The notes under the pieces: model-generated
Database searches by the model: none
Told to the model about the DNA's origin: nothing
What the model saw: only the letters and a program-made list of their open reading frames with translations
Source: an uncultured Bdellovibrionales bacterium
GTDB taxonomy: Bacteria > Patescibacteriota > Minisyncoccia > Moranbacterales > GWC2-37-73
Reading direction: 5' to 3'
DNA: 64,000 nt
Assembly (NCBI GenBank): GCA_964609855.1
Contig: CAZSTB010000003.1
Span: forward strand, 4,305-68,304
Shown: positions 3,624 through 55,424 of the stretch, piece by piece
Layout of the letters: every line of letters starts with the position of its first letter
How positions within the stretch are numbered: the stretch's first letter is position 1
Position numbers and translations under genes: made by a program

Positions 3624-4061
3624 TTAACGATTACTTTGATTGTCTAACCATTCCTGTAAAATTATTCTGGCCGCTTCTTGGTCATCAGTTGCTGCGAGTT
3701 TCTTTTTCCCGTGCAATTTTATATTTCCCTGCGCAATTTTTGTCGAAAACATTTCTTCCTGAAAAGCAACTTTAATTTCAAAAGCGTCTTCAAGCAATTT
3801 AGCAAAAGCAAGTTTCTCCTCCGCGCTCTTTTCGTCTTTTTCATGACTAGTCATGCCCATCACGATCATTTGCACATTTTTATCTTTAATGATTTCAGCC
3901 AGATTATGCATTAAATTCTTGTCATTTGCTAGCACTGTCAGCGCAAAGGCCATTTTAGTCTCCTGGTCAGCCACTGCTAGACCGATTTTGGAGCTGCCAA
4001 AATCTACCCCTAAAATATGGCTTATTTGAGCGTTATTTTGCATAGCTATTGACATTGACAT
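3624..4061 (-). CDS. ruvX: putative pre-16S rRNA nuclease / Holliday junction resolvase-like YqgF
   Basis: ILGVDFGSSKIGLAVAD N-terminal RNase H-like motif; size ~140 aa. Confidence 0.65.
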   Translation of the reverse strand: MSMSIAMQNNAQISHILGVDFGSSKIGLAVADQETKMAFALTVLANDKNLMHNLAEIIKDKNVQMIVMGMTSHEKDEKSAEEKLAFAKLLEDAFEIKVAFQEEMFSTKIAQGNIKLHGKKKLAATDDQEAARIILQEWLDNQSNR

Positions 4062-4122
4062 AATTATGTGCTATTATTAATTGAAGTAGTACAATCCACT
4101 AGTAGTGAAAGGGGTTATAAAT

Positions 4123-4503
4123 ATGAACCGTTTCATGGCTCTGGCTGTTGTAGCTGCTGTGCTCTGCTCGTTAACTATTGCTTGTATCTTCAAGTTCAGT
4201 ATTAGACTCAGCGATAAACGCACGAGTTGCAATACTGAAACATCACTGCTAAACCAGGATTCCGTTGCCGTGTTTCGAAATGTTCGGGGCACAGTAATCG
4301 ACAAGGACAACCTCCTGCTCACGGACCTCGGCCAACAAGATGACCGCGATCCGCAGGTCATTGTCGTAAGTAACCTTTCAGACTTTACTAAACAAGTCGA
4401 TAACCCACAGGGCATCGATCTGCACGCTAAGTTGGAAGGTAACGAGTGGCGCATCATTGAAGTCAAACAGGCCACTTACATTGCGATTGCGAAAAGCATT
4501 TAA
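4123..4503 (+). CDS. small hypothetical protein with N-terminal signal peptide or TM anchor; GC-rich cassette
   Basis: ATG at 4123 preceded by SD GAAAGGGG (4107-4114); hydrophobic N-terminus MNRFMALAVVAAVLCSLTIAC; followed by strong intrinsic terminator; opposite strand to all neighbours; G+C visibly higher than flanks. Confidence 0.5.
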   Translation: MNRFMALAVVAAVLCSLTIACIFKFSIRLSDKRTSCNTETSLLNQDSVAVFRNVRGTVIDKDNLLLTDLGQQDDRDPQVIVVSNLSDFTKQVDNPQGIDLHAKLEGNEWRIIEVKQATYIAIAKSI

Positions 4504-4526
4504 ACGCGATTCGCGATCAACATCCA

Positions 4527-4582
4527 CCTCTGATACACGACTTAATCCTAACGGGTTGATAGTGTATCAGAGGTTTTTTTAT
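4527..4582 (+). terminator. rho-independent terminator (12-bp stem CCTCTGATACAC / GTGTATCAGAGG, then T7)
   Basis: perfect inverted repeat 4527-4538 / 4563-4574 followed by TTTTTTT 4575-4581. Confidence 0.8.
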
Positions 4583-4725
4583 TTAAAAAAACCTTTTCTA
4601 TTGTCACTTATGATGCAACGAGGAATTCGCAACATCATAGCCCATGATATTTAATTAGGGATTCGTCGCTATACACTGAATGATTTTTACATCTCGTATT
4701 CATACAAAATACGCTATACAGAATA

Positions 4726-5487
4726 CTAAGCAGTCAAAACTTCCACTCCATCATTGGTAATCAAAATCGTATTTTCATAATGAGCTGAAAGCTTCCGGTC
4801 AGCAGTTAAAAAAACCCAGCCATCCCTGCCGATAACGGTTTCGTGCGTGCCGACATTCACCATCGGCTCCAGTGCTAGGGTCATACCAGATTTAAGCACT
4901 AGGTCGCGATAGCCGCGTTCAAAATAATTTGGAACTTGCGGATCTTCATGCAGATTTTTTCCAATACCATGCCCCACCAGATTTTTCACAACTGAAAAGC
5001 CCGCAGTAACTGCAACTTTTTCACAGGCTTTGGAATATTCACTGAGATTTTTTCCGTCCTTAAGTTGCTTCACCCCTTTCCAAAAAGATTGCTCTGTTGC
5101 TGCAATTAATTGCTTGGCTTGCTCGGAAATTTCTCCCACCGCAAAGGTACGAGCCATATCAGCGCAAAAACCCTCCATCTTTAAACCGATATCGATCTTC
5201 AAAATATCACCCTCTTTCAAAATTACCTCGCTGCTTGGAATACCATGTACCACTTCATCATTAAGAGAAGCGCAGATGGTCGCCGGAAAAGGATTATGCC
5301 TGTCACCATACCCTTTGAATGCTGGAACGCCGCCAGCAGCTAAAATTGAATCCTCAGCGAGCCTATCAATCTCTTGGGTGCTTACGCCAGGTTTAACAAC
5401 CTCAGCCAGCTTTCGCATAACCTCAGCCAACGCTTTTCCAGCCTTGCGCATAATGGCAACCTCTTGTTCAGTTTTCAGATGAATAGA
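4726..5487 (-). CDS. map: methionine aminopeptidase type I
   Basis: pita-bread fold motifs (GHGIG, metal-binding D/H/E pattern); follows adk as in the spc/alpha operon; the ORF extends to 5514 but the likely start is MSIHLK. Confidence 0.85.
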   Translation of the reverse strand, partial: SIHLKTEQEVAIMRKAGKALAEVMRKLAEVVKPGVSTQEIDRLAEDSILAAGGVPAFKGYGDRHNPFPATICASLNDEVVHGIPSSEVILKEGDILKIDIGLKMEGFCADMARTFAVGEISEQAKQLIAATEQSFWKGVKQLKDGKNLSEYSKACEKVAVTAGFSVVKNLVGHGIGKNLHEDPQVPNYFERGYRDLVLKSGMTLALEPMVNVGTHETVIGRDGWVFLTADRKLSAHYENTILITNDGVEVLTA

Positions 5488-5639
5488 CATGATATTCAAA
5501 AATCCTAAATCCAAATTTCAAATTTCAAATAAATGACCGAAGTTCAAATGTCTAAAATTTAAGATTTTTGATTTGAGATTTTATTTGTCATTTAGATTTT
5601 AGATTTTTACATTACGACAAATAATAGGATTGCAAATTT

Positions 5640-6290
5640 CTAGTTTTCTCTGAACTTTTCATTTATTTCATTAAAAACGTCTGCAACGGGTTGGTTTCCA
5701 TCCACTTCAATCAGCATTCCTTGCTCGCGATAATATGCTACAACGGGAACTGTAATTGCATAAAAATCTTTGAGACGTTTTGCAACGCCGTCGGGTGTAT
5801 CATCTCCGCGCTGCATAATCGGGCCACCGCAAGTAGGACAAGGGTCGTCGATATTTTTAATATGCTTATCAAGCACGAAATGGCGATAGCAAACAGTGCA
5901 AGCATAGCGTTTCGTAATTCGCGCAATGGATTCCTCGTACGGCAAAGTTATATATATAGCCTTATCTATATTTCTCCCAAGACTCTCCATCAACTTTGTG
6001 GTTGGTTGAATTTGTCCGAGTGTTCGCGGAGCACTATCCAAAATGACACCCATCTCAGCCGGAACTTTCTCCAAATAATTTCTTAAGACTTCAACTGTAA
6101 TCTCATCTGGAATAAGCTCTTTGCGGTCATTCAAATCTTTGATTTTTCTTCCAAGCTCGGAATCCTCGCGACCGATTTCTCGAAAAATTTGACCTGTTTC
6201 AAGATGATAAAGTTTAAATTTCTCGCATAACTTATCGGCCTGTGTTCCCTTGCCGCTTCCCTGTGGACCAAATATTAATAGGTTCATCAA
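5640..6290 (-). CDS. adk: adenylate kinase with Zn-binding lid (CxxC...CxxC)
   Basis: P-loop GPQGSGKGTQ; LID with CTVC...CPTC; position after secY. Confidence 0.85.
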   Translation of the reverse strand: MMNLLIFGPQGSGKGTQADKLCEKFKLYHLETGQIFREIGREDSELGRKIKDLNDRKELIPDEITVEVLRNYLEKVPAEMGVILDSAPRTLGQIQPTTKLMESLGRNIDKAIYITLPYEESIARITKRYACTVCYRHFVLDKHIKNIDDPCPTCGGPIMQRGDDTPDGVAKRLKDFYAITVPVVAYYREQGMLIEVDGNQPVADVFNEINEKFREN

Positions 6291-48951: not shown

Positions 48952-49653
48952 TTAGTTATTCATTCTAATGCAAACGTTTGATATATATGGCTCCATGAAA
49001 AGCTTTATTTTTTCAAGATCCAAAGCCTGGTTTTTCGTGGTTGCTTTCAAATTATCATCCAAAATTCTCATCTCGCGGTATTCCTGCAAATAATAAGCAT
49101 TTGCCCCCTTTATCCACTTGGCGATTTCCAGAAAATCTTCTTCGCTATGAAGTCCTGGAACGACAGTGGTTCGAAACTCATATGGAATTCCGCTTTCCAT
49201 TATCATTCTAACACTTTTCCTAATCCCCGCCATGTCTGCAACAACACCAACTACCTTGCTGTAGTTTTTTTGACTGCTCTTTATATCCATCGCAATGTAA
49301 TCAACTAGTTTTTCTTTGATGATTTTTTCCAAGACCTTAGGCTGCGTTCCATTGGAGTCAAGCTTCACAGCATATCCCATGCCTTTGATTTTTTTGATAA
49401 ATTCAATGATATCAGGCTGAATCGTCGGCTCTCCGCCTGTAATACAGACACCTTCCAGTTTCCCTTTTCGCTTTTCCAATAGCTCAAAGAATTCTTTTTC
49501 CATTTCATTAAGCTCCGGAAACTGCTCCGGCAAAACCAATTCCGGATTATGACAAAAACTGCAACGAAAACTGCAACCCACAGTAAAAACCGTAGTGGCG
49601 ATTTTACCGGGAAAATCTATTAGGGTTAACTTTTGAATACCACCGATGCGCAT
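48952..49653 (-). CDS. nrdG: anaerobic ribonucleoside-triphosphate reductase activating protein (radical SAM)
   Basis: CSFRCSFCHNPE CxxxCxxC cluster motif and GGEPT. Confidence 0.8.
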   Translation of the reverse strand: MRIGGIQKLTLIDFPGKIATTVFTVGCSFRCSFCHNPELVLPEQFPELNEMEKEFFELLEKRKGKLEGVCITGGEPTIQPDIIEFIKKIKGMGYAVKLDSNGTQPKVLEKIIKEKLVDYIAMDIKSSQKNYSKVVGVVADMAGIRKSVRMIMESGIPYEFRTTVVPGLHSEEDFLEIAKWIKGANAYYLQEYREMRILDDNLKATTKNQALDLEKIKLFMEPYISNVCIRMNN

Positions 49654-49989
49654 ACGCGTAATTTTTAATTTTGAATTTTTAATTTTAAATGAATTTCCAA
49701 TGACAGAATTTTCAAAACCCGTTTACTATGTCATTCTGAATTTATTTCAGAATCCACCTTCTTCATTTCAGCAAATTTTCTCCCAGCAAAATATCCCTAA
49801 GTAAGTCCAGAATGACAATGAGTTATTTTTTAGCTCAAATAAAGTAATTATCAATGTAACACCTTTTTACGCAATTCTTCTCCGACAGGGAGAGAAAAAT
49901 GAATAAATCTTAAGATTACGTACCCAAAACTCTTGAAATAAATTTTACATGTAATGATTTTGTTTCCACATTTCTTTTTCCGCAAAAGA

Positions 49990-50290
49990 AACCTGGAGGA
50001 AAGAAAACTCTCGCACGGAGTTCGCACTGGCAAAATTGCTACGCTCGCTCGCTAAATTTCCTCGCGCAAAAAAGTCGCAGAAGGAATTTTGCTGAGAAAA
50101 TTTATAACACTCCCTCGCTGCAATTTTGAAACGCGCTCCTAGTGCGAATTTAAATACGGAAATACAAAATGCAAAACGTTATCATATTGGAAACTTGCCT
50201 CTCCGCCCATTGCGTTAGTGCGTTTCAAAATTCACGATTGCGAGCGTTAAAAAATTACTTTTGGAGCGTAGCGGAATAGTAATTTTAGTG
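49990..50290. ncRNA. candidate structured RNA / regulatory region within the 960-bp nrdG to nrdD-mini-gene spacer
   Basis: multiple 7-9 bp long-range complementary pairs (50022-50029/50141-50148; 50039-50047/50264-50272; 50127-50133/50220-50226); GC-richer; no convincing ORF. Confidence 0.3.
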
Positions 50291-50615
50291 AGCAAGAGTA
50301 AGAATTTTGTCAGCACAAGCTAGGGCGGGACTTTCTTTTGTTACTTTTCCTTTCTAGAAAGAAAAGTAAATTTAAATATACGTCAACAATAAGAGTACAA
50401 ACCAAATTTAATTCAGTAAATAAATCAGTGAATAAAATCCTGGATTCCGGGTCAAGCCCGGAATGACAATTCTGTAAAAAACTTTCTATCATTCCCAAGC
50501 TACTTTTAAAATCCTACACTCAGAGATCCTGAAACAAGTTCAGGATGACAGCTAGAATTGAGGGAATTCGAGGCAATCCATGAAAGATTGCCTCGATATA
50601 TTCCCAGATCTTTTT

Positions 50616-50879
50616 CTAAGCGCAAACGCAGCCTGATTCCACTACATATTCATTGCGGTCTGCAAATTCCGCCTGCTTACCTTTGTTCCATTGAGTCACG
50701 GGACGAATGTAGCCGACAACTCTTGAATAAACCTCAGTAGGTTGGAAATTTCTCAGCACGCTGTCAGCTTGGTGACAAGCTTTGCATTTGTTGTAAATCT
50801 CAGCTCCTACCTTGTACGGCATATATTCCTCATTGCTCTCGATTGTTTTCCCACAATCATGACATGTGTATTTTTCCAT
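50616..50879 (-). CDS. stand-alone NrdD C-terminal-like domain: Zn-ribbon plus glycyl-radical motif (RVVGYIRPV), 87 aa
   Basis: 27 of 30 residues identical to the NrdD C-terminus (EVYSRVVGYIRPV.QWNKGKQAEF.DR); about 80% DNA identity between 50651-50738 and 51024-51110; intact CxxC...CxxC and clean ATG start. Confidence 0.6.
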   Translation of the reverse strand: MEKYTCHDCGKTIESNEEYMPYKVGAEIYNKCKACHQADSVLRNFQPTEVYSRVVGYIRPVTQWNKGKQAEFADRNEYVVESGCVCA

Positions 50880-50969
50880 ATGTTTTTATTTTTAATGTTA
50901 AATTATTTTCAAACTCTTCAAGCAGAAACGTCTCCCTGCCTAAAAATTTAGTTTGTCTTTCGCGACTGA

Positions 50970-53231
50970 CTATTTTTTCTTCTTATCTACCGTTTCCACT
51001 TCGCATTTTCCGTTTTGAAATTCCTTGCGGTCTCCAAACTCAGCCTGCTTACCTTTATTCCACTGCTCCACTGGACGAATATAGCCAACCACGCGAGAAT
51101 AAACTTCAGTCTTTTGCTCTACCACACATTTTGGACAAATGTGCTGCTCACCTGGAATATAACCATGAACCGGACAAATGCTGAATGTTGGAGAAAGTGT
51201 GAAATACGGAAGTGCATAATTCTCAGCGATTTTTCTTACCAGATTCTTCACCATTTGAATGTCCCAAATTCTTTCCCCTAAGAATCCATGAAGAACAGTT
51301 CCTCCGGTATATTTTGTCTGAAGATTATCCTGCAAATCCAGAGCTTCAAAAATATCCTCCGTGAAATGAACTGGGAGTTGCGAAGAGTTTGTGTAATAAG
51401 GTTCTCCGCCATTTTCTTTGACTGCTTTGTCATTTGCGAAAATGATATCCGGATATTTAACTTTATCAAGTCTTGCTAAGCGATAAGCGGTTCCTTCTGC
51501 AGGAGTTGCCTCCAAGTTGTAAAGATTACCTGTTTCTTCTTGGTAACCTGTAATGCGCTCTCGCATATGCACCAAGATTTCTTCAGCCAAGGCTTGTCCC
51601 TCCGGACTCGTAACTTCCTTACCGATAAGATTCAATAATCCCTCATTCATTCCGACCAAACCGATTGTTGAAAAGTGATTTGCCCAATATTGTCCCCTGC
51701 GCATCTTAATCGCATCTAGATAATATTTTGTATATGGATATAATCCTTGCTCAGTAAGACCCTCAACAAGTTTTCGCTTAGTCTCCAAGCTTTCCTTTGC
51801 AAGATCAGTAAGTGCATCCAACTCTTTGAAGAATTCTTTCTTATTTTTTGCTCTGTATCCAAGTCTTGGAAGATTGATAGTTACAACTCCAACTGAACCA
51901 GTCAGTGGATTTGCTCCAAAAAGTCCTCCTCCGCGCTTATGAAGTTCGCGATTATCCAATCTTAGGCGGCAGCACATGGAACGAGCATCATCAGGATCCA
52001 TATCTGAATTAACGAAGTTTGCGAAATATGGAATACCATATTTAGCGGTCATTTCCCAGATAGGATCGAAGCGGTCATCCTCCCAATTAAAATTCTTGTC
52101 GATGTTATAGGTTGGAATCGGGAAAGTGAAAATTCTTCCGCTTGCATCTCCTTCAGTCATAACTTCGGCAAATGCACGGTTGATCATATTCATTTCTTCC
52201 TGAAATTCTCCATAAGTTTCCAATTGCGGAGCACCACCGATGATCACTGCTTCTTTTGCTAAATTCTTCGGAGCAGTAATATCCATCGTAATATTGGAAA
52301 ACGGAGTTTGAAATCCTACACGCGTAGAAACATTCATGTTAAATACGAAAGACTGAATTTCCTGCTTTACTTGTTGGAATGAAAGCTTATCGTAACGAAC
52401 GAATGGGGCAAGCAAAGTGTCAAAGTTTGAAAATGCTTGAGCGCCGGCAACTTCTCCCTGTAAAGTGTAAATGAAATTCACCATTTGTCCGAGAATACTT
52501 CCGAGATGCTTAGCTGGTCTGCAGGCTACCTTTCCTGGAACCCCAGTGAAACCTCTGCGAAGTAAGTCTTGCAAATCCCAACCACAGCAATAAGCAGCAA
52601 TAAGTTGCAAATCATGAATATGGAAGTCTCCACCTTCATGCGCAGCTCTGATTTCTTTAGTGTAAACCCGGTTCATCCAGTACTTACTGCTAACTATGGA
52701 AGCGATGTAATTATTAAGTCCTTGCAAGGAATATGCCATATTAGCATTCTCCTTAACTTTCCAATCTATCTCTTGAATATATTTATCTACAAGACTCACG
52801 GCCTCATCCAGGGATTGCTCAGTTTCTCTGATTTTGCGATGTTGTTCGCGGTAAAGAATATATGCCTTGGCTGTTTCCTCGAAATCTAAAATCATCAGCA
52901 CGCGCTCAACCAAATCTTGAAGTTGTTCGATTGTTGGGATATCTCCTTGCTTGTAATTTTTGTTCAAGATTTGAACAACCTTGTCGGAAACTTTAGCAGC
53001 TTCAACTTTTCCACCCTCTCCTGTAATCGCCAAAGCTTTACTCACTGCAATAGTAATTTTTTTAGGATCAAAGGGAACTACGCGTCCTGATCGTTTTACA
53101 AGTTTTTTCACCATGTTCTTAGTCTTTGCAGGTTTTGCTTTTACCAGAGAAACTTGAGACGCTATCTTTTTCACCGCCACAATCTTTTTCTCACCCTTTG
53201 TTGAATTTTTCTTTGTTTTTGCCATATCCAT
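50970..53231 (-). CDS. nrdD: anaerobic ribonucleoside-triphosphate reductase (class III)
   Basis: N-terminal ATP-cone, C-terminal Zn site CPVHGY...CPKC, glycyl radical motif RVVGYIRPV; 753 aa. Confidence 0.9.
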   Translation of the reverse strand: MDMAKTKKNSTKGEKKIVAVKKIASQVSLVKAKPAKTKNMVKKLVKRSGRVVPFDPKKITIAVSKALAITGEGGKVEAAKVSDKVVQILNKNYKQGDIPTIEQLQDLVERVLMILDFEETAKAYILYREQHRKIRETEQSLDEAVSLVDKYIQEIDWKVKENANMAYSLQGLNNYIASIVSSKYWMNRVYTKEIRAAHEGGDFHIHDLQLIAAYCCGWDLQDLLRRGFTGVPGKVACRPAKHLGSILGQMVNFIYTLQGEVAGAQAFSNFDTLLAPFVRYDKLSFQQVKQEIQSFVFNMNVSTRVGFQTPFSNITMDITAPKNLAKEAVIIGGAPQLETYGEFQEEMNMINRAFAEVMTEGDASGRIFTFPIPTYNIDKNFNWEDDRFDPIWEMTAKYGIPYFANFVNSDMDPDDARSMCCRLRLDNRELHKRGGGLFGANPLTGSVGVVTINLPRLGYRAKNKKEFFKELDALTDLAKESLETKRKLVEGLTEQGLYPYTKYYLDAIKMRRGQYWANHFSTIGLVGMNEGLLNLIGKEVTSPEGQALAEEILVHMRERITGYQEETGNLYNLEATPAEGTAYRLARLDKVKYPDIIFANDKAVKENGGEPYYTNSSQLPVHFTEDIFEALDLQDNLQTKYTGGTVLHGFLGERIWDIQMVKNLVRKIAENYALPYFTLSPTFSICPVHGYIPGEQHICPKCVVEQKTEVYSRVVGYIRPVEQWNKGKQAEFGDRKEFQNGKCEVETVDKKKK

Positions 53232-53301: not shown

Positions 53302-53754
53302 TCAACTAGATTCCATTTTTTCCATCTCTCTTCTGAAACTATCAGCGCTTTTAAATGATTTATACACGCTCGCAAATCTCAGATATGCAACATCGTCCAG
53401 TTCCTTAAGTTTTTCCAAAATAAATTTGCCTATTTCCTTACTCGTAATCTCACTAGATTCCCTGGCTTGAATATTATATTCGATATCCCCGATAGCCTTA
53501 CTGATCTTATCCTCACTGACTGGACGTTTCTCCAGGGCTTTATGCAAACCGATTTCTATTTTTCTACGGTCATATTCCTGCCTGCTGCCATCGCGCTTAA
53601 TAACAGTAAGTCGCATAATTTCCATTTCTTCGTAGGTAGAGAACCTTGCCTGACATTTTTCACATTCTCTGCGTCTACGAATTGCTTTTCCATCATTAGT
53701 ATCTCGCGAATCAACAACTCTAGATTCACCGTTTCCACAAAAGGGACACACCAT
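53302..53754 (-). CDS. nrdR: transcriptional repressor NrdR
   Basis: MVCPFCG...CEKC zinc ribbon plus ATP-cone. Confidence 0.85.
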   Translation of the reverse strand: MVCPFCGNGESRVVDSRDTNDGKAIRRRRECEKCQARFSTYEEMEIMRLTVIKRDGSRQEYDRRKIEIGLHKALEKRPVSEDKISKAIGDIEYNIQARESSEITSKEIGKFILEKLKELDDVAYLRFASVYKSFKSADSFRREMEKMESS

Positions 53755-54194: not shown

Positions 54195-55424
54195 TTACTT
54201 CTCCATCTTTCTTCTAATGAAGGCCGGTATTTCCAATTCATCCTCCTCTTCATGTTTCATTTCTACCAAGGGGCTCATCATCTGACGTGGTTGAATCTTA
54301 TCTTCAATGATCATCTTGGGCTCCAAAATCTTTTTGCTTGGAAAAGTTATGGATTCAACAAATTCCTCCTCTTTCTTCTCCTCCTTTTCGTTTTGAGCAA
54401 TAGCCTGATCGATTTGAGTTGTACGATTTGCGGGAACTCGATTAATCAAAGGATTTTCTTGATTACGGTCACTATCGAATCCTGTTGCGACCACTGTTAC
54501 ATGGATTTCGCCTTTCTTAACCTGATCATCAACAACAGCTCCGAAAATTACCTTTGCATTAGGATCAATACTTTCCGTAATAATATTTGCAGCTTCATTG
54601 ATTTCCAACATACCCAAATCACTCGAACCGGAAATATTGAAAAGTACGCCCTTTGCCCCATCAATTGAAAGTTCAAGTAGTGGACTATTGATTGCAGCTC
54701 TGGCCGCTTCAGATGCCCTATTCTCACCACTGGCAATACCAATGCCCATCAAGGCGCTTCCGGAGTCCTGCATGATTGCTCTTACGTCTGCAAAGTCGAC
54801 GTTAACAATACCAGGCTTCGTAATAAGGTCAGAAATTCCCTGCACACCTTGCCTGAGAACATCATCTACAATCCTAAAGGCATTGATTAGCGTAGTTTTA
54901 CGATCGATAATTGCAAGCAATTTGTCATTAGGAATCGTAATAAGACTATCTACACGTTCGCTGAGATTTTCAAGCGCCGCCTCACTGATCATTCTGCGCT
55001 GAGCGCCTTCAAAAGAAAAGGGTTTTGTAATGACCGCAATCGTAAGTGCTCCAAGTTCCTTAGCTGCTTCAGCGACAACCGGAGCCGCACCACTTCCTGT
55101 TCCTCCTCCCATACCCGCACAAACAAAAACCATATCTGCTCCCTTAAGCACATCTTGAATTTCATCGCGATTTTCTTCGGCAGCTTGGCGACCAACTTCA
55201 GGATTCATTCCAGCACCAAGACCCTTGGAAAGATTTTTTCCAATATGAACTTTTTCACCAGCTTTTGAATGATGCAAAGCCTGAGAATCTGTATTTATCG
55301 CAACAAATTCCACACCTTTTATTTTCGCATCAATCATCCGTGTGATAGCATTATTTCCACCACCACCAACACCCACAACTTTAATTCGAGCAAACGTTTC
55401 AATATCCGGTTTAATTTCTGCCAT
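54195..55424 (-). CDS. ftsZ: cell division protein FtsZ
   Basis: GGGTGSG tubulin signature. Confidence 0.95.

Follow-up and report, generated by a model that had tools for sequence, protein, structure and literature searches.

Directly downstream of nrdD in a 64,000-nucleotide stretch of contig CAZSTB010000003.1 (assembly GCA_964609855.1; the whole stretch is called the window here) lies a small gene for an 87-residue protein. In this study, we propose that this protein is a free-standing glycyl-radical domain of class III ribonucleotide reductase (RNR), which would be activated by NrdG and work in trans, as a spare in the window genome and as the sole radical carrier in relatives; we consider this reading likely. 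Its core, a trans-acting radical module, is well supported by the comparison of related loci. In the window genome, the most likely role would be service as an oxygen-damage spare. NrdG makes the radical on a glycine of the NrdD C-terminal domain. The spare-part protein GrcA is a free domain that is activated by the activase of pyruvate formate-lyase (PFL) and replaces the cut domain of that enzyme (PMC13450708). Our whole argument rests on sequence comparison among uncultured organisms. The closest relatives of the window are metagenome-assembled Ca. Moranbacteria/Moraniibacteriota (Patescibacteria), with NrdD identities of up to 91%; the record titles of some relatives (e.g., 'Bdellovibrionales') evidently stem from mislabelled bins.

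The 87-residue protein and its family

The sequence-only reading had described an 87-residue open reading frame (ORF) with an ATG start, a CxxC...CxxC metal site and a loop glycine. Coordinates and description are both correct, and the glycine was re-checked as G56. The ORF ends with TAG and translates to MEKYTCHDCGKTIESNEEYMPYKVGAEIYNKCKACHQADSVLRNFQPTEVYSRVVGYIRPVTQWNKGKQAEFADRNEYVVESGCVCA. The Pfam family NRDD (PF13597) matches it with E=3e-13, exclusively at profile positions 510-562 of 562, and is its sole domain match; PF01228 (Gly_radical, the GrcA/YfiD family) gave no match at E<=0.1 in the Pfam scan. NCBIfam NrdD-family scores amount to 40 bits, far under the cut-off of 326 (TIGR02487 family tested). 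The ten-stranded barrel and the finger-loop cysteine by which NrdD proteins are recognized are absent from the ORF, and the four-ligand Zn site followed by an RVxGY hairpin is present. The protein has the form of a spare part, namely a free-standing small homologue of the radical domain of the parent enzyme.

A search of 5.8 billion proteins returned 645 homologous protein clusters. The best 120 of these are all 80-113 residues long at 61-89% identity, and the named clusters among them belong mostly to Moranbacteria, Parcubacteria or Patescibacteria. Across 110 aligned members, C6, H7, C9, Y22, C32 and C35 of the ribbon and E49, Y51, S52, R53, V55, G56, R59, P60, Q63 and W64 of the loop region are invariant. 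The family also has its own insert of ~21 residues in the N-terminal ribbon, with a conserved EEYMPY, that NrdD does not possess. At the level of loci, we compared 81, i.e., the window and 80 species-representative loci, all chosen for carrying the small gene. The gene starts with ATG in 80 of the 81, with an A-rich leader ahead of it in almost every locus. Its pairwise ratio of nonsynonymous to synonymous substitution rates (dN/dS, Nei-Gojobori) is 0.079 between loci with a loop-bearing NrdD and 0.115 between loci with a loop-less NrdD. The tail of ~26 residues behind the loop holds at least two cysteines in 48/71 family members (as CC, CxC or CxxC), while 23/71 are without a cysteine pair. 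By way of speculation, this C-terminal pair might shuttle reducing equivalents, given the MCCR finger loop of NrdD. Judged by its substitution pattern and its conservation, the small gene is a genuine, conserved gene under purifying selection, and the earlier statement that it is maintained rather than debris is borne out across the family (dN/dS ~0.08-0.12).

An AlphaFold2 model built with 110 sequences has a mean predicted local distance difference test score (pLDDT) of 72.6. It comprises a ribbon (residues 1-40, pLDDT 82-91), a beta hairpin (51-54/57-60) with G56 at the tip, a helix (61-72) and a disordered Cys tail (<50 at residues 81-87). A hairpin with glycine at the tip is, as modelled, the shape expected of a glycyl-radical hairpin, and the low pLDDT of the loop fits a segment that would become ordered only on docking. 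A Foldseek search of the model against the PDB was uninformative, returning generic zinc-ribbon ribosomal proteins only (best E=0.08), and a single-sequence search of PDB chains with the 87-residue protein gave nothing meaningful.

BLASTP aligned the protein to residues 706-738 of the neighbouring NrdD with 28 of 33 positions identical (85%, E=7e-18), so that the near identity of the loop to the NrdD C-terminus noticed before is confirmed. Over 90 nt of loop-coding DNA, the small gene and nrdD are 80% identical, compared with a mean of 72-76% between different genomes. Because 80% is near this between-genome level and because the zinc ribbons are built differently (CHDC-x22-CKAC in the ORF vs CPVH-x9-CPKC in NrdD), the small gene is an old paralogue and not a recent duplication of the nrdD 3' end. 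Of the partial duplication suggested earlier, the ~80% DNA identity thus stands and the recent origin does not; the identity is, on this comparison, a reflection of constraint.

Within the 35 loci that have both loops, the two loops of one genome are 90% identical in protein vs 81% between genomes, and share the same codon at 64% vs 44% of identical residues. The window pair lies near background (0.87 protein, 0.80 DNA, 0.56 codon). Gene conversion is clear in L020, L023, L044, L067 and L077, where codon identity reaches 0.86-1.0. In L023 (4147-4278 vs 4344-4607), the NrdD C-terminus is 97% DNA-identical to the small gene over the loop and carries the Cys tail of the small protein (ACESC), which sets the direction of conversion from the small gene to nrdD. 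Other lineages share lineage-specific residues (RIVGY, WNAGK, EEYKDRKE) at background synonymous identity. Either pattern fits two loops held to one sequence, which is what contact with a shared activase and a shared barrel would predict.

Loop-less NrdD and the settings of the small gene

The usual gene order in related loci is nrdR-nrdD-small gene-nrdG, with nrdR upstream of nrdD in most of them and nrdG downstream of the small gene in most of those with long enough flanks. Short nrdD-adjacent ORFs, for which the sequence-only reading had proposed a search in other genomes, do occur there. Presence of loops and mini-genes was judged at locus neighbourhoods rather than in whole genomes. By this measure, NrdD has its own RV[VI]GYIRP loop in 35/81 loci, the window included, and is loop-less in 36/81. 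Each loop-less NrdD is a single intact ORF of ~500-730 residues (most 670-730) that ends 6-29 residues (median 15) past the Zn site CxxH...CxxC, with the Gly motif absent. Several of these tails contain decayed loop remnants (EQKTEVFLKVGEEE, EQKTDVFLIAGDDE, DQKTKVFSQVKRK), and 24/36 retain an aromatic residue at the position of the EVYSR Tyr. Loop-less NrdD keep 217 of the 239 columns that are invariant in loop-bearing NrdD. A small gene with an intact loop adjoins NrdD in all 36 loop-less loci.

Trivial origins of the loop-less form are unlikely. At a dN/dS of 0.075 and with the SMCCR finger loop retained in 36/36, these are improbable pseudogenes. Recoded UGA is not a plausible source, as the stops are mostly TAA/TAG. 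Joining to the small gene by frameshift or splicing is equally improbable, given gaps of 24-427 nt (with one 22-nt overlap), any relative frame, and a small gene with its own ATG and ribbon. A separate case is L059 (CP064994.1, a complete Moraniibacteriota genome), where the nrdD match at 3737-5939 falls into three overlapping pieces with stops interrupting the tail. This may be a decaying gene or the result of long-read frameshift errors; the adjoining small gene is intact and nrdG follows 1.8 kb further.

If oxygen cut the window NrdD at G716, 13 residues would remain behind the last Zn cysteine. Since the median tail of loop-less NrdD measures 15 residues, loop-less NrdD is, as far as its primary structure tells, a close genetic mimic of the oxygen-cut enzyme. 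In a neighbour-joining tree of the NrdD core, the two loop states are intermixed (at least 8 changes by parsimony), and loop-less sequences nest within loop-bearing clades. A split RNR, i.e., a barrel gene without the C-terminal module and the module next door, is not what the window encodes, where NrdD keeps its loop; this arrangement occurs in the 36 related loci with a loop-less NrdD and also in 13 of the metagenome loci. At the nrdD loci of roughly half the related species that were sampled, we found no radical carrier other than the small protein, which is apparently an obligate subunit in many relatives.

These 81 loci were selected for the small gene. To sample NrdD without regard to it, an NrdD core profile lacking the loop was scanned on metagenome contigs, yielding 80 loci at 64-85% identity, 76 of them informative and 73 classifiable. 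NrdD has its own loop and no mini-gene downstream in 52 loci, and its own loop together with a downstream mini-gene in 2. It is loop-less with a Gly-loop mini-gene within 1.8 kb in 13 loci, and loop-less with no mini-gene within 4 kb in 6. A downstream mini-gene thus accompanies 13/19 loop-less vs 2/54 loop-bearing NrdD (Fisher's exact odds ratio 56, p=2.7e-8), so that the two, loop-less NrdD and a mini-gene downstream, are statistically linked. The order is nrdD-mini-gene-nrdG in all such loci but one, which is without a detected downstream nrdG.

Only 1/13 of these mini-genes is of the Moranbacteria type. The other 12/13 (L186-L188, L191, L196, L197, L204, L208, L214, L223, L239, L244) follow a second, ribbon-less architecture. 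Here, NrdD terminates as ...CxxCDEEIGY... immediately behind the Zn site, and an ATG-started, loop-only ORF of 44-54 residues, e.g., MTEEKQSKRQACEIYSRVVGYLRPVSQWNDGKQAEFSDRKTYDKQLEEV, lies downstream at gaps of -4 to 172 nt and in any frame. The next gene is nrdG in 11/12; none was detected in L208, where the downstream flank is short. Because of this second architecture, separately encoded Gly loops of class III RNR probably arose more than once.

In five loci, the small gene is unlinked from nrdD: L069 (5424-7105), L070, L071, L075 and L076, labelled Staskawiczbacteria, Parcubacteria or Saccharibacteria, a different Patescibacteria group. In all of them (5/5), its position is directly upstream of a gene for Fe/Mn superoxide dismutase (SOD), and in 4/5 (not in L075) it is directly downstream of a Fur-family regulator. 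The linkage to SOD persists at SOD identities of only 38-79%, and by its gene content this neighbourhood is an oxidative-stress setting. The small gene of the window has no Fur or SOD neighbours.

Searching 1.84 billion representative proteins with a profile gave 3801 matches, 421 of them at E<=1e-10. The best 150 of the 3801 are all 42-159 residues long and include a wider group of 110-146 residues with an N-terminal extension. One member of this wider group, a 124-residue protein with N-terminal extension, ribbon and loop (L081, 8001-8375), is encoded downstream of a 2-oxoacid:ferredoxin oxidoreductase operon on a bacterial contig of 193 kb, with no nrdD within 8 kb. Others reside on phage contigs with portal and capsid genes. 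Scanning IMG/VR gave 343 matching stretches; the best 80 of these 343 loci hold 65 motif-bearing ORFs of <400 residues (mostly 45-170), many of the short ones ribbon-less, and 8 of >=400. Many of the viral contigs L084-L089 and L090-L169 encode short (~45-170 residues), free-standing NrdD-type Gly-loop proteins with the ribbon present or absent. The archaeal virus ANMV-1 (KP703175, L170 3857-4291) has a 144-residue coding sequence of this kind that is annotated 'anaerobic ribonucleoside triphosphate reductase'. Usually, no nrdD was detected within 10 kb of the phage mini-genes in a detection that is not sensitive for phage loci, and the few tblastn matches to an NrdD core beside them are weak (23-30% identity) and uninterpretable. 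PHROGs contains no dedicated family for the mini-proteins, which match only the C-terminus of NrdD families. Several ribbon-less mini-proteins end in a cysteine pair, as most members of the Moranbacteria-type family do.

Proposed mechanism, precedents and alternative explanations

NrdG, encoded downstream, is expected to put the radical on both Gly loops, that of NrdD and that of the small protein. To be reached by NrdG, the radical domain of NrdD has to move outside the barrel, and until it is activated it is flexible (PMC12662201). In the small protein, abstraction of the C-alpha hydrogen of G56 would be easy, as the domain is not buried in a barrel. The activated module would then dock into the NrdD barrel with its glycyl radical beside the finger-loop cysteines (SMCC), stand in for NrdD's C-terminal hairpin and hand the radical to a finger-loop cysteine. 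On full-length NrdD, the tethered loop should normally win over the free module. Oxygen cleaves the NrdD chain at the radical glycine and thereby kills the enzyme (PMC12288474); the barrel would then be vacant and resemble the loop-less NrdD of relatives, which apparently operates with the module. Because the window NrdD still has its own loop, we see the window module as a second, exchangeable radical carrier, whose likeliest use would be on NrdD cut by oxygen at G716. NrdG activation, docking in trans and oxygen rescue are all steps that we infer from the gene comparisons.

The closest functional analogues of the small protein are GrcA/YfiD of E. coli and Y06I of phage T4, and its closest homologue is the NrdD C-terminal domain. 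Similar to GrcA and Y06I, it is a small free-standing copy of the C-terminal glycyl-radical domain of a large enzyme, and phage-encoded versions exist in both cases (T4 Y06I; the phage mini-proteins described here). By analogy, the same logic would be expected, i.e., activation by the activase of the parent followed by replacement of the oxygen-cleaved domain. Yet, the parent is class III RNR instead of PFL, and the small protein falls outside PF01228, carries a zinc ribbon that GrcA does not have and is encoded inside the nrdD-nrdG operon. Moreover, many species have a parent NrdD whose loop is lost, making the module apparently obligatory there, which is not known for GrcA. The earlier proposal of a GrcA-like module for NrdD is supported, indirectly but strongly, as far as service in trans is concerned (36/81 loop-less NrdD, link to the mini-gene) and has to be amended in one respect: the module is not just a spare, being the only carrier near nrdD in many relatives. 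A review of June 2026 restricts the known spare-part proteins to formate lyases and calls it 'yet to be determined' whether other family members have them (PMC13450708), in agreement with the earlier remark that no GrcA analogue has been described for class III RNR. Likewise, neither a split class III RNR nor a free-standing NrdD radical protein turned up in our literature search.

The C-terminal domains of NrdD (T4 1H7A, T. maritima 4U3E, P. copri 8P23) are homologous to the small protein and share with it the four-ligand Zn site and, behind this site, the RVxGY hairpin. In contrast to them, the small protein forms a polypeptide of its own with a separate start codon, and it has the ~21-residue ribbon insert and, in most members, a Cys-rich tail. 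The split class II enzyme NrdJa/NrdJb of Pseudomonas aeruginosa also consists of a barrel and a C-terminal module encoded by two adjacent genes, but NrdJb carries a reducing Cys tail and an IscU-like domain and no radical (PMC9669993). The radical of NrdJa/NrdJb comes from adenosylcobalamin, unlike the glycyl radical proposed here. Class I enzymes likewise store a stable radical on a small separate subunit, beta (NrdB/NrdF), from which it passes to a cysteine in the catalytic subunit. The likeness is an analogy only: neither the fold nor the chemistry is related, beta being ferritin-like and its radical a di-metal tyrosyl radical that acts by long-range transfer.

Several alternatives have to be weighed against a trans-acting module that serves as a spare in the window genome. 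The small protein may be the main, constitutive radical subunit in the window genome too, with the NrdD loop redundant or secondary. Half of the relatives use the small protein only, the gene is situated inside the nrdD-nrdG operon with no terminator ahead, and keeping both copies is the rarer state (2/54 loop-bearing NrdD in the sample chosen without regard to the small gene). However, RVVGYIRP of NrdD is perfectly conserved in 35/35 loop-bearing loci and hence used, a tethered loop should out-compete a diffusible loop for the barrel, and the Fur-SOD context of another clade points to an oxygen-related role. We regard constitutive use in the window as a rather unlikely alternative.

Slightly more doubtful still is a regulator or decoy that competes for NrdG or fills the NrdD barrel, and so throttles radical formation without supporting catalysis. 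A free Gly loop would suit NrdG as substrate, phage copies could in principle interfere with the dNTP (deoxynucleoside triphosphate) supply of the host, and the small gene adjoins an nrdR-regulated nrdD. Such throttling leaves unexplained why an intact, constrained NrdD repeatedly lost its loop only where the mini-gene is present, and it would leave loop-less NrdD with no radical source.

A redox or metal accessory, in which ribbon and Cys pair deliver reducing equivalents or metal and the Gly loop is a docking element only, is improbable. The endings in CC, CxC or CxxC speak for it, as does the double-cysteine MCCR finger loop of NrdD, a type linked to disulfide/thioredoxin-type reduction (PMC9669993), and the split class II subunit NrdJb offers a precedent in bearing a zinc finger and a Cys tail. 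On the other hand, the radical motif is the most conserved part of the small protein, the Cys pair is missing in a third of the members counted above (23/71), and the 44-54-residue mini-proteins and many phage ones are ribbon-less, often without cysteines; a redox role could also coexist with the radical role instead of replacing it. Finally, a non-functional remnant of a partial nrdD 3' duplication, for which the position next to nrdD and the 80% identical loop DNA could be cited, is already refuted by the conservation and selection data, i.e., hundreds of same-length homologues in many species, the low dN/dS, the near-universal ATG, invariant metal ligands and Gly loop, an N-terminal motif that NrdD does not have, and 36 loci in which NrdD and not the small gene lost the loop.

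The favoured reading, a trans-acting module used as a spare in the window genome, faces objections of its own. The loop of the window NrdD is intact and perfectly conserved, so the module is dispensable for basic activity; for this reason, spare use in the window is what we infer rather than observe. The neighbour-joining tree is a crude, simple distance tree with an ambiguous root state, and the AlphaFold2 confidence of the loop is only moderate (pLDDT 53-76). The model does not explain how a second zinc ribbon is accommodated beside the ribbon that NrdD retains. Loop-less species might carry another RNR or another loop gene elsewhere. L069 and L076 have a class I/II-type RNR 2-3 kb away. The six metagenome loci with a loop-less NrdD and no mini-gene within 4 kb also weigh against the proposed dependence; they may hold the mini-gene elsewhere, as in the SOD-linked clade.

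On balance, we favour a broader picture of multi-component class III RNRs in which the radical would reside on a small replaceable subunit of at least two origins (the 87-residue ribbon form and the 44-54-residue loop-only form). Many Patescibacteria and other uncultured bacteria would depend on this subunit as their only source of the radical, genomes like that of the window would keep it as a spare, and phages would carry it to recharge or take over the anaerobic RNR of the host. The window locus and its relatives thus represent a concrete candidate spare-part system for class III RNR, an essential enzyme of anaerobes. If true, it would be the first such system outside PFL and would serve as a living model for radical subunits detached from the RNR barrel. 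The loop-less species offer a natural two-piece enzyme that could reveal activation of the radical domain outside the barrel and subsequent docking. The proposed system would also explain how oxygen-sensitive, genome-reduced Patescibacteria keep up their supply of DNA precursors when oxygen fluctuates, with no need to make an enzyme of 750 residues anew. An unrecognised class of auxiliary genes is suggested by the phage-borne copies. With respect to RNR evolution, a separate small radical subunit is the arrangement of class I enzymes.

Layout of the locus in the window

The window has a G+C content of 38%. On the minus strand, the gene order is ftsZ (54195-55424), nrdR, nrdD, the 87-residue ORF, a 962-nt spacer and nrdG (Table 1). 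The presumed radical glycine G56 is encoded at 50712-50714. A promoter/terminator scan showed nothing resembling a minus-strand terminator between nrdD and the small gene, and its remaining output was at chance level. Co-transcription of the small gene with nrdD would be consistent with this terminator-free 90-nt spacer.

Table 1. Coordinates of the small gene, its parts and its neighbours in the window.
Feature	Position	Strand	Evidence
Gene for the putative 87-residue glycyl-radical module	50616..50879 (including stop)	(-)	ORF listing, Pfam NRDD C-terminal match, homologue clusters, dN/dS
Zinc ribbon, residues 4-38 (C6, C9, C32, C35, EEYMPY insert)	50766..50870	(-)	Conservation, AlphaFold2, translation
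Predicted glycyl-radical loop EVYSRVVGYIRPVTQWNKGKQAEFADR, residues 49-75	50655..50735	(-)	Identity to NrdD, conservation, model
C-terminal cysteine pair (CVCA), disordered tail	50619..50630	(-)	Cys counts in family, low pLDDT
Spacer between nrdD and the small gene, 90 nt, A-rich leader ahead of ATG	50880..50969	(-)	
nrdD, class III RNR, 753 residues, ATP-cone and barrel	50970..53231	(-)	Pfam NRDD 1e-197, ATP-cone; NCBIfam NF006126 1066 bits
NrdD finger loop SMCC	51969-51980	(-)	Translation
NrdD Zn site C686-C702	51126-51176	(-)	Translation
NrdD own Gly loop EVYSRVVGYIRPVEQWNKGKQAEFGDR	51027-51107; G716 at 51084-51086	(-)	Translation
nrdG, radical S-adenosylmethionine activase	48952..49653	(-)	NCBIfam TIGR02495 NrdG2, 222 bits vs cut-off 131
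nrdR, transcriptional repressor of RNR genes	53302..53754	(-)	Pfam Zn_ribbon_NrdR and ATP-cone; directly upstream of nrdD
ORF-poor spacer between the small gene and nrdG, 962 nt	49654..50615	(.)	

The corresponding spacer between the small gene and nrdG measures 50-300 nt in most relatives, so that the 962 nt of the window, or 963 by a second count, are unusually long; this spacer is probably outside the mechanism. It gave no Rfam match, and no Rfam family at gathering score and no tRNA gene (ARAGORN) was found in the 64-kb window as a whole. A repeat search of the spacer gave short hairpin repeats only, with three copies of a GGAATGACA-like hairpin element of the GTCATTC...GAATGAC type. The spacer also includes a 43-nt imperfect inverted repeat (50095-50137 / 50217-50259).

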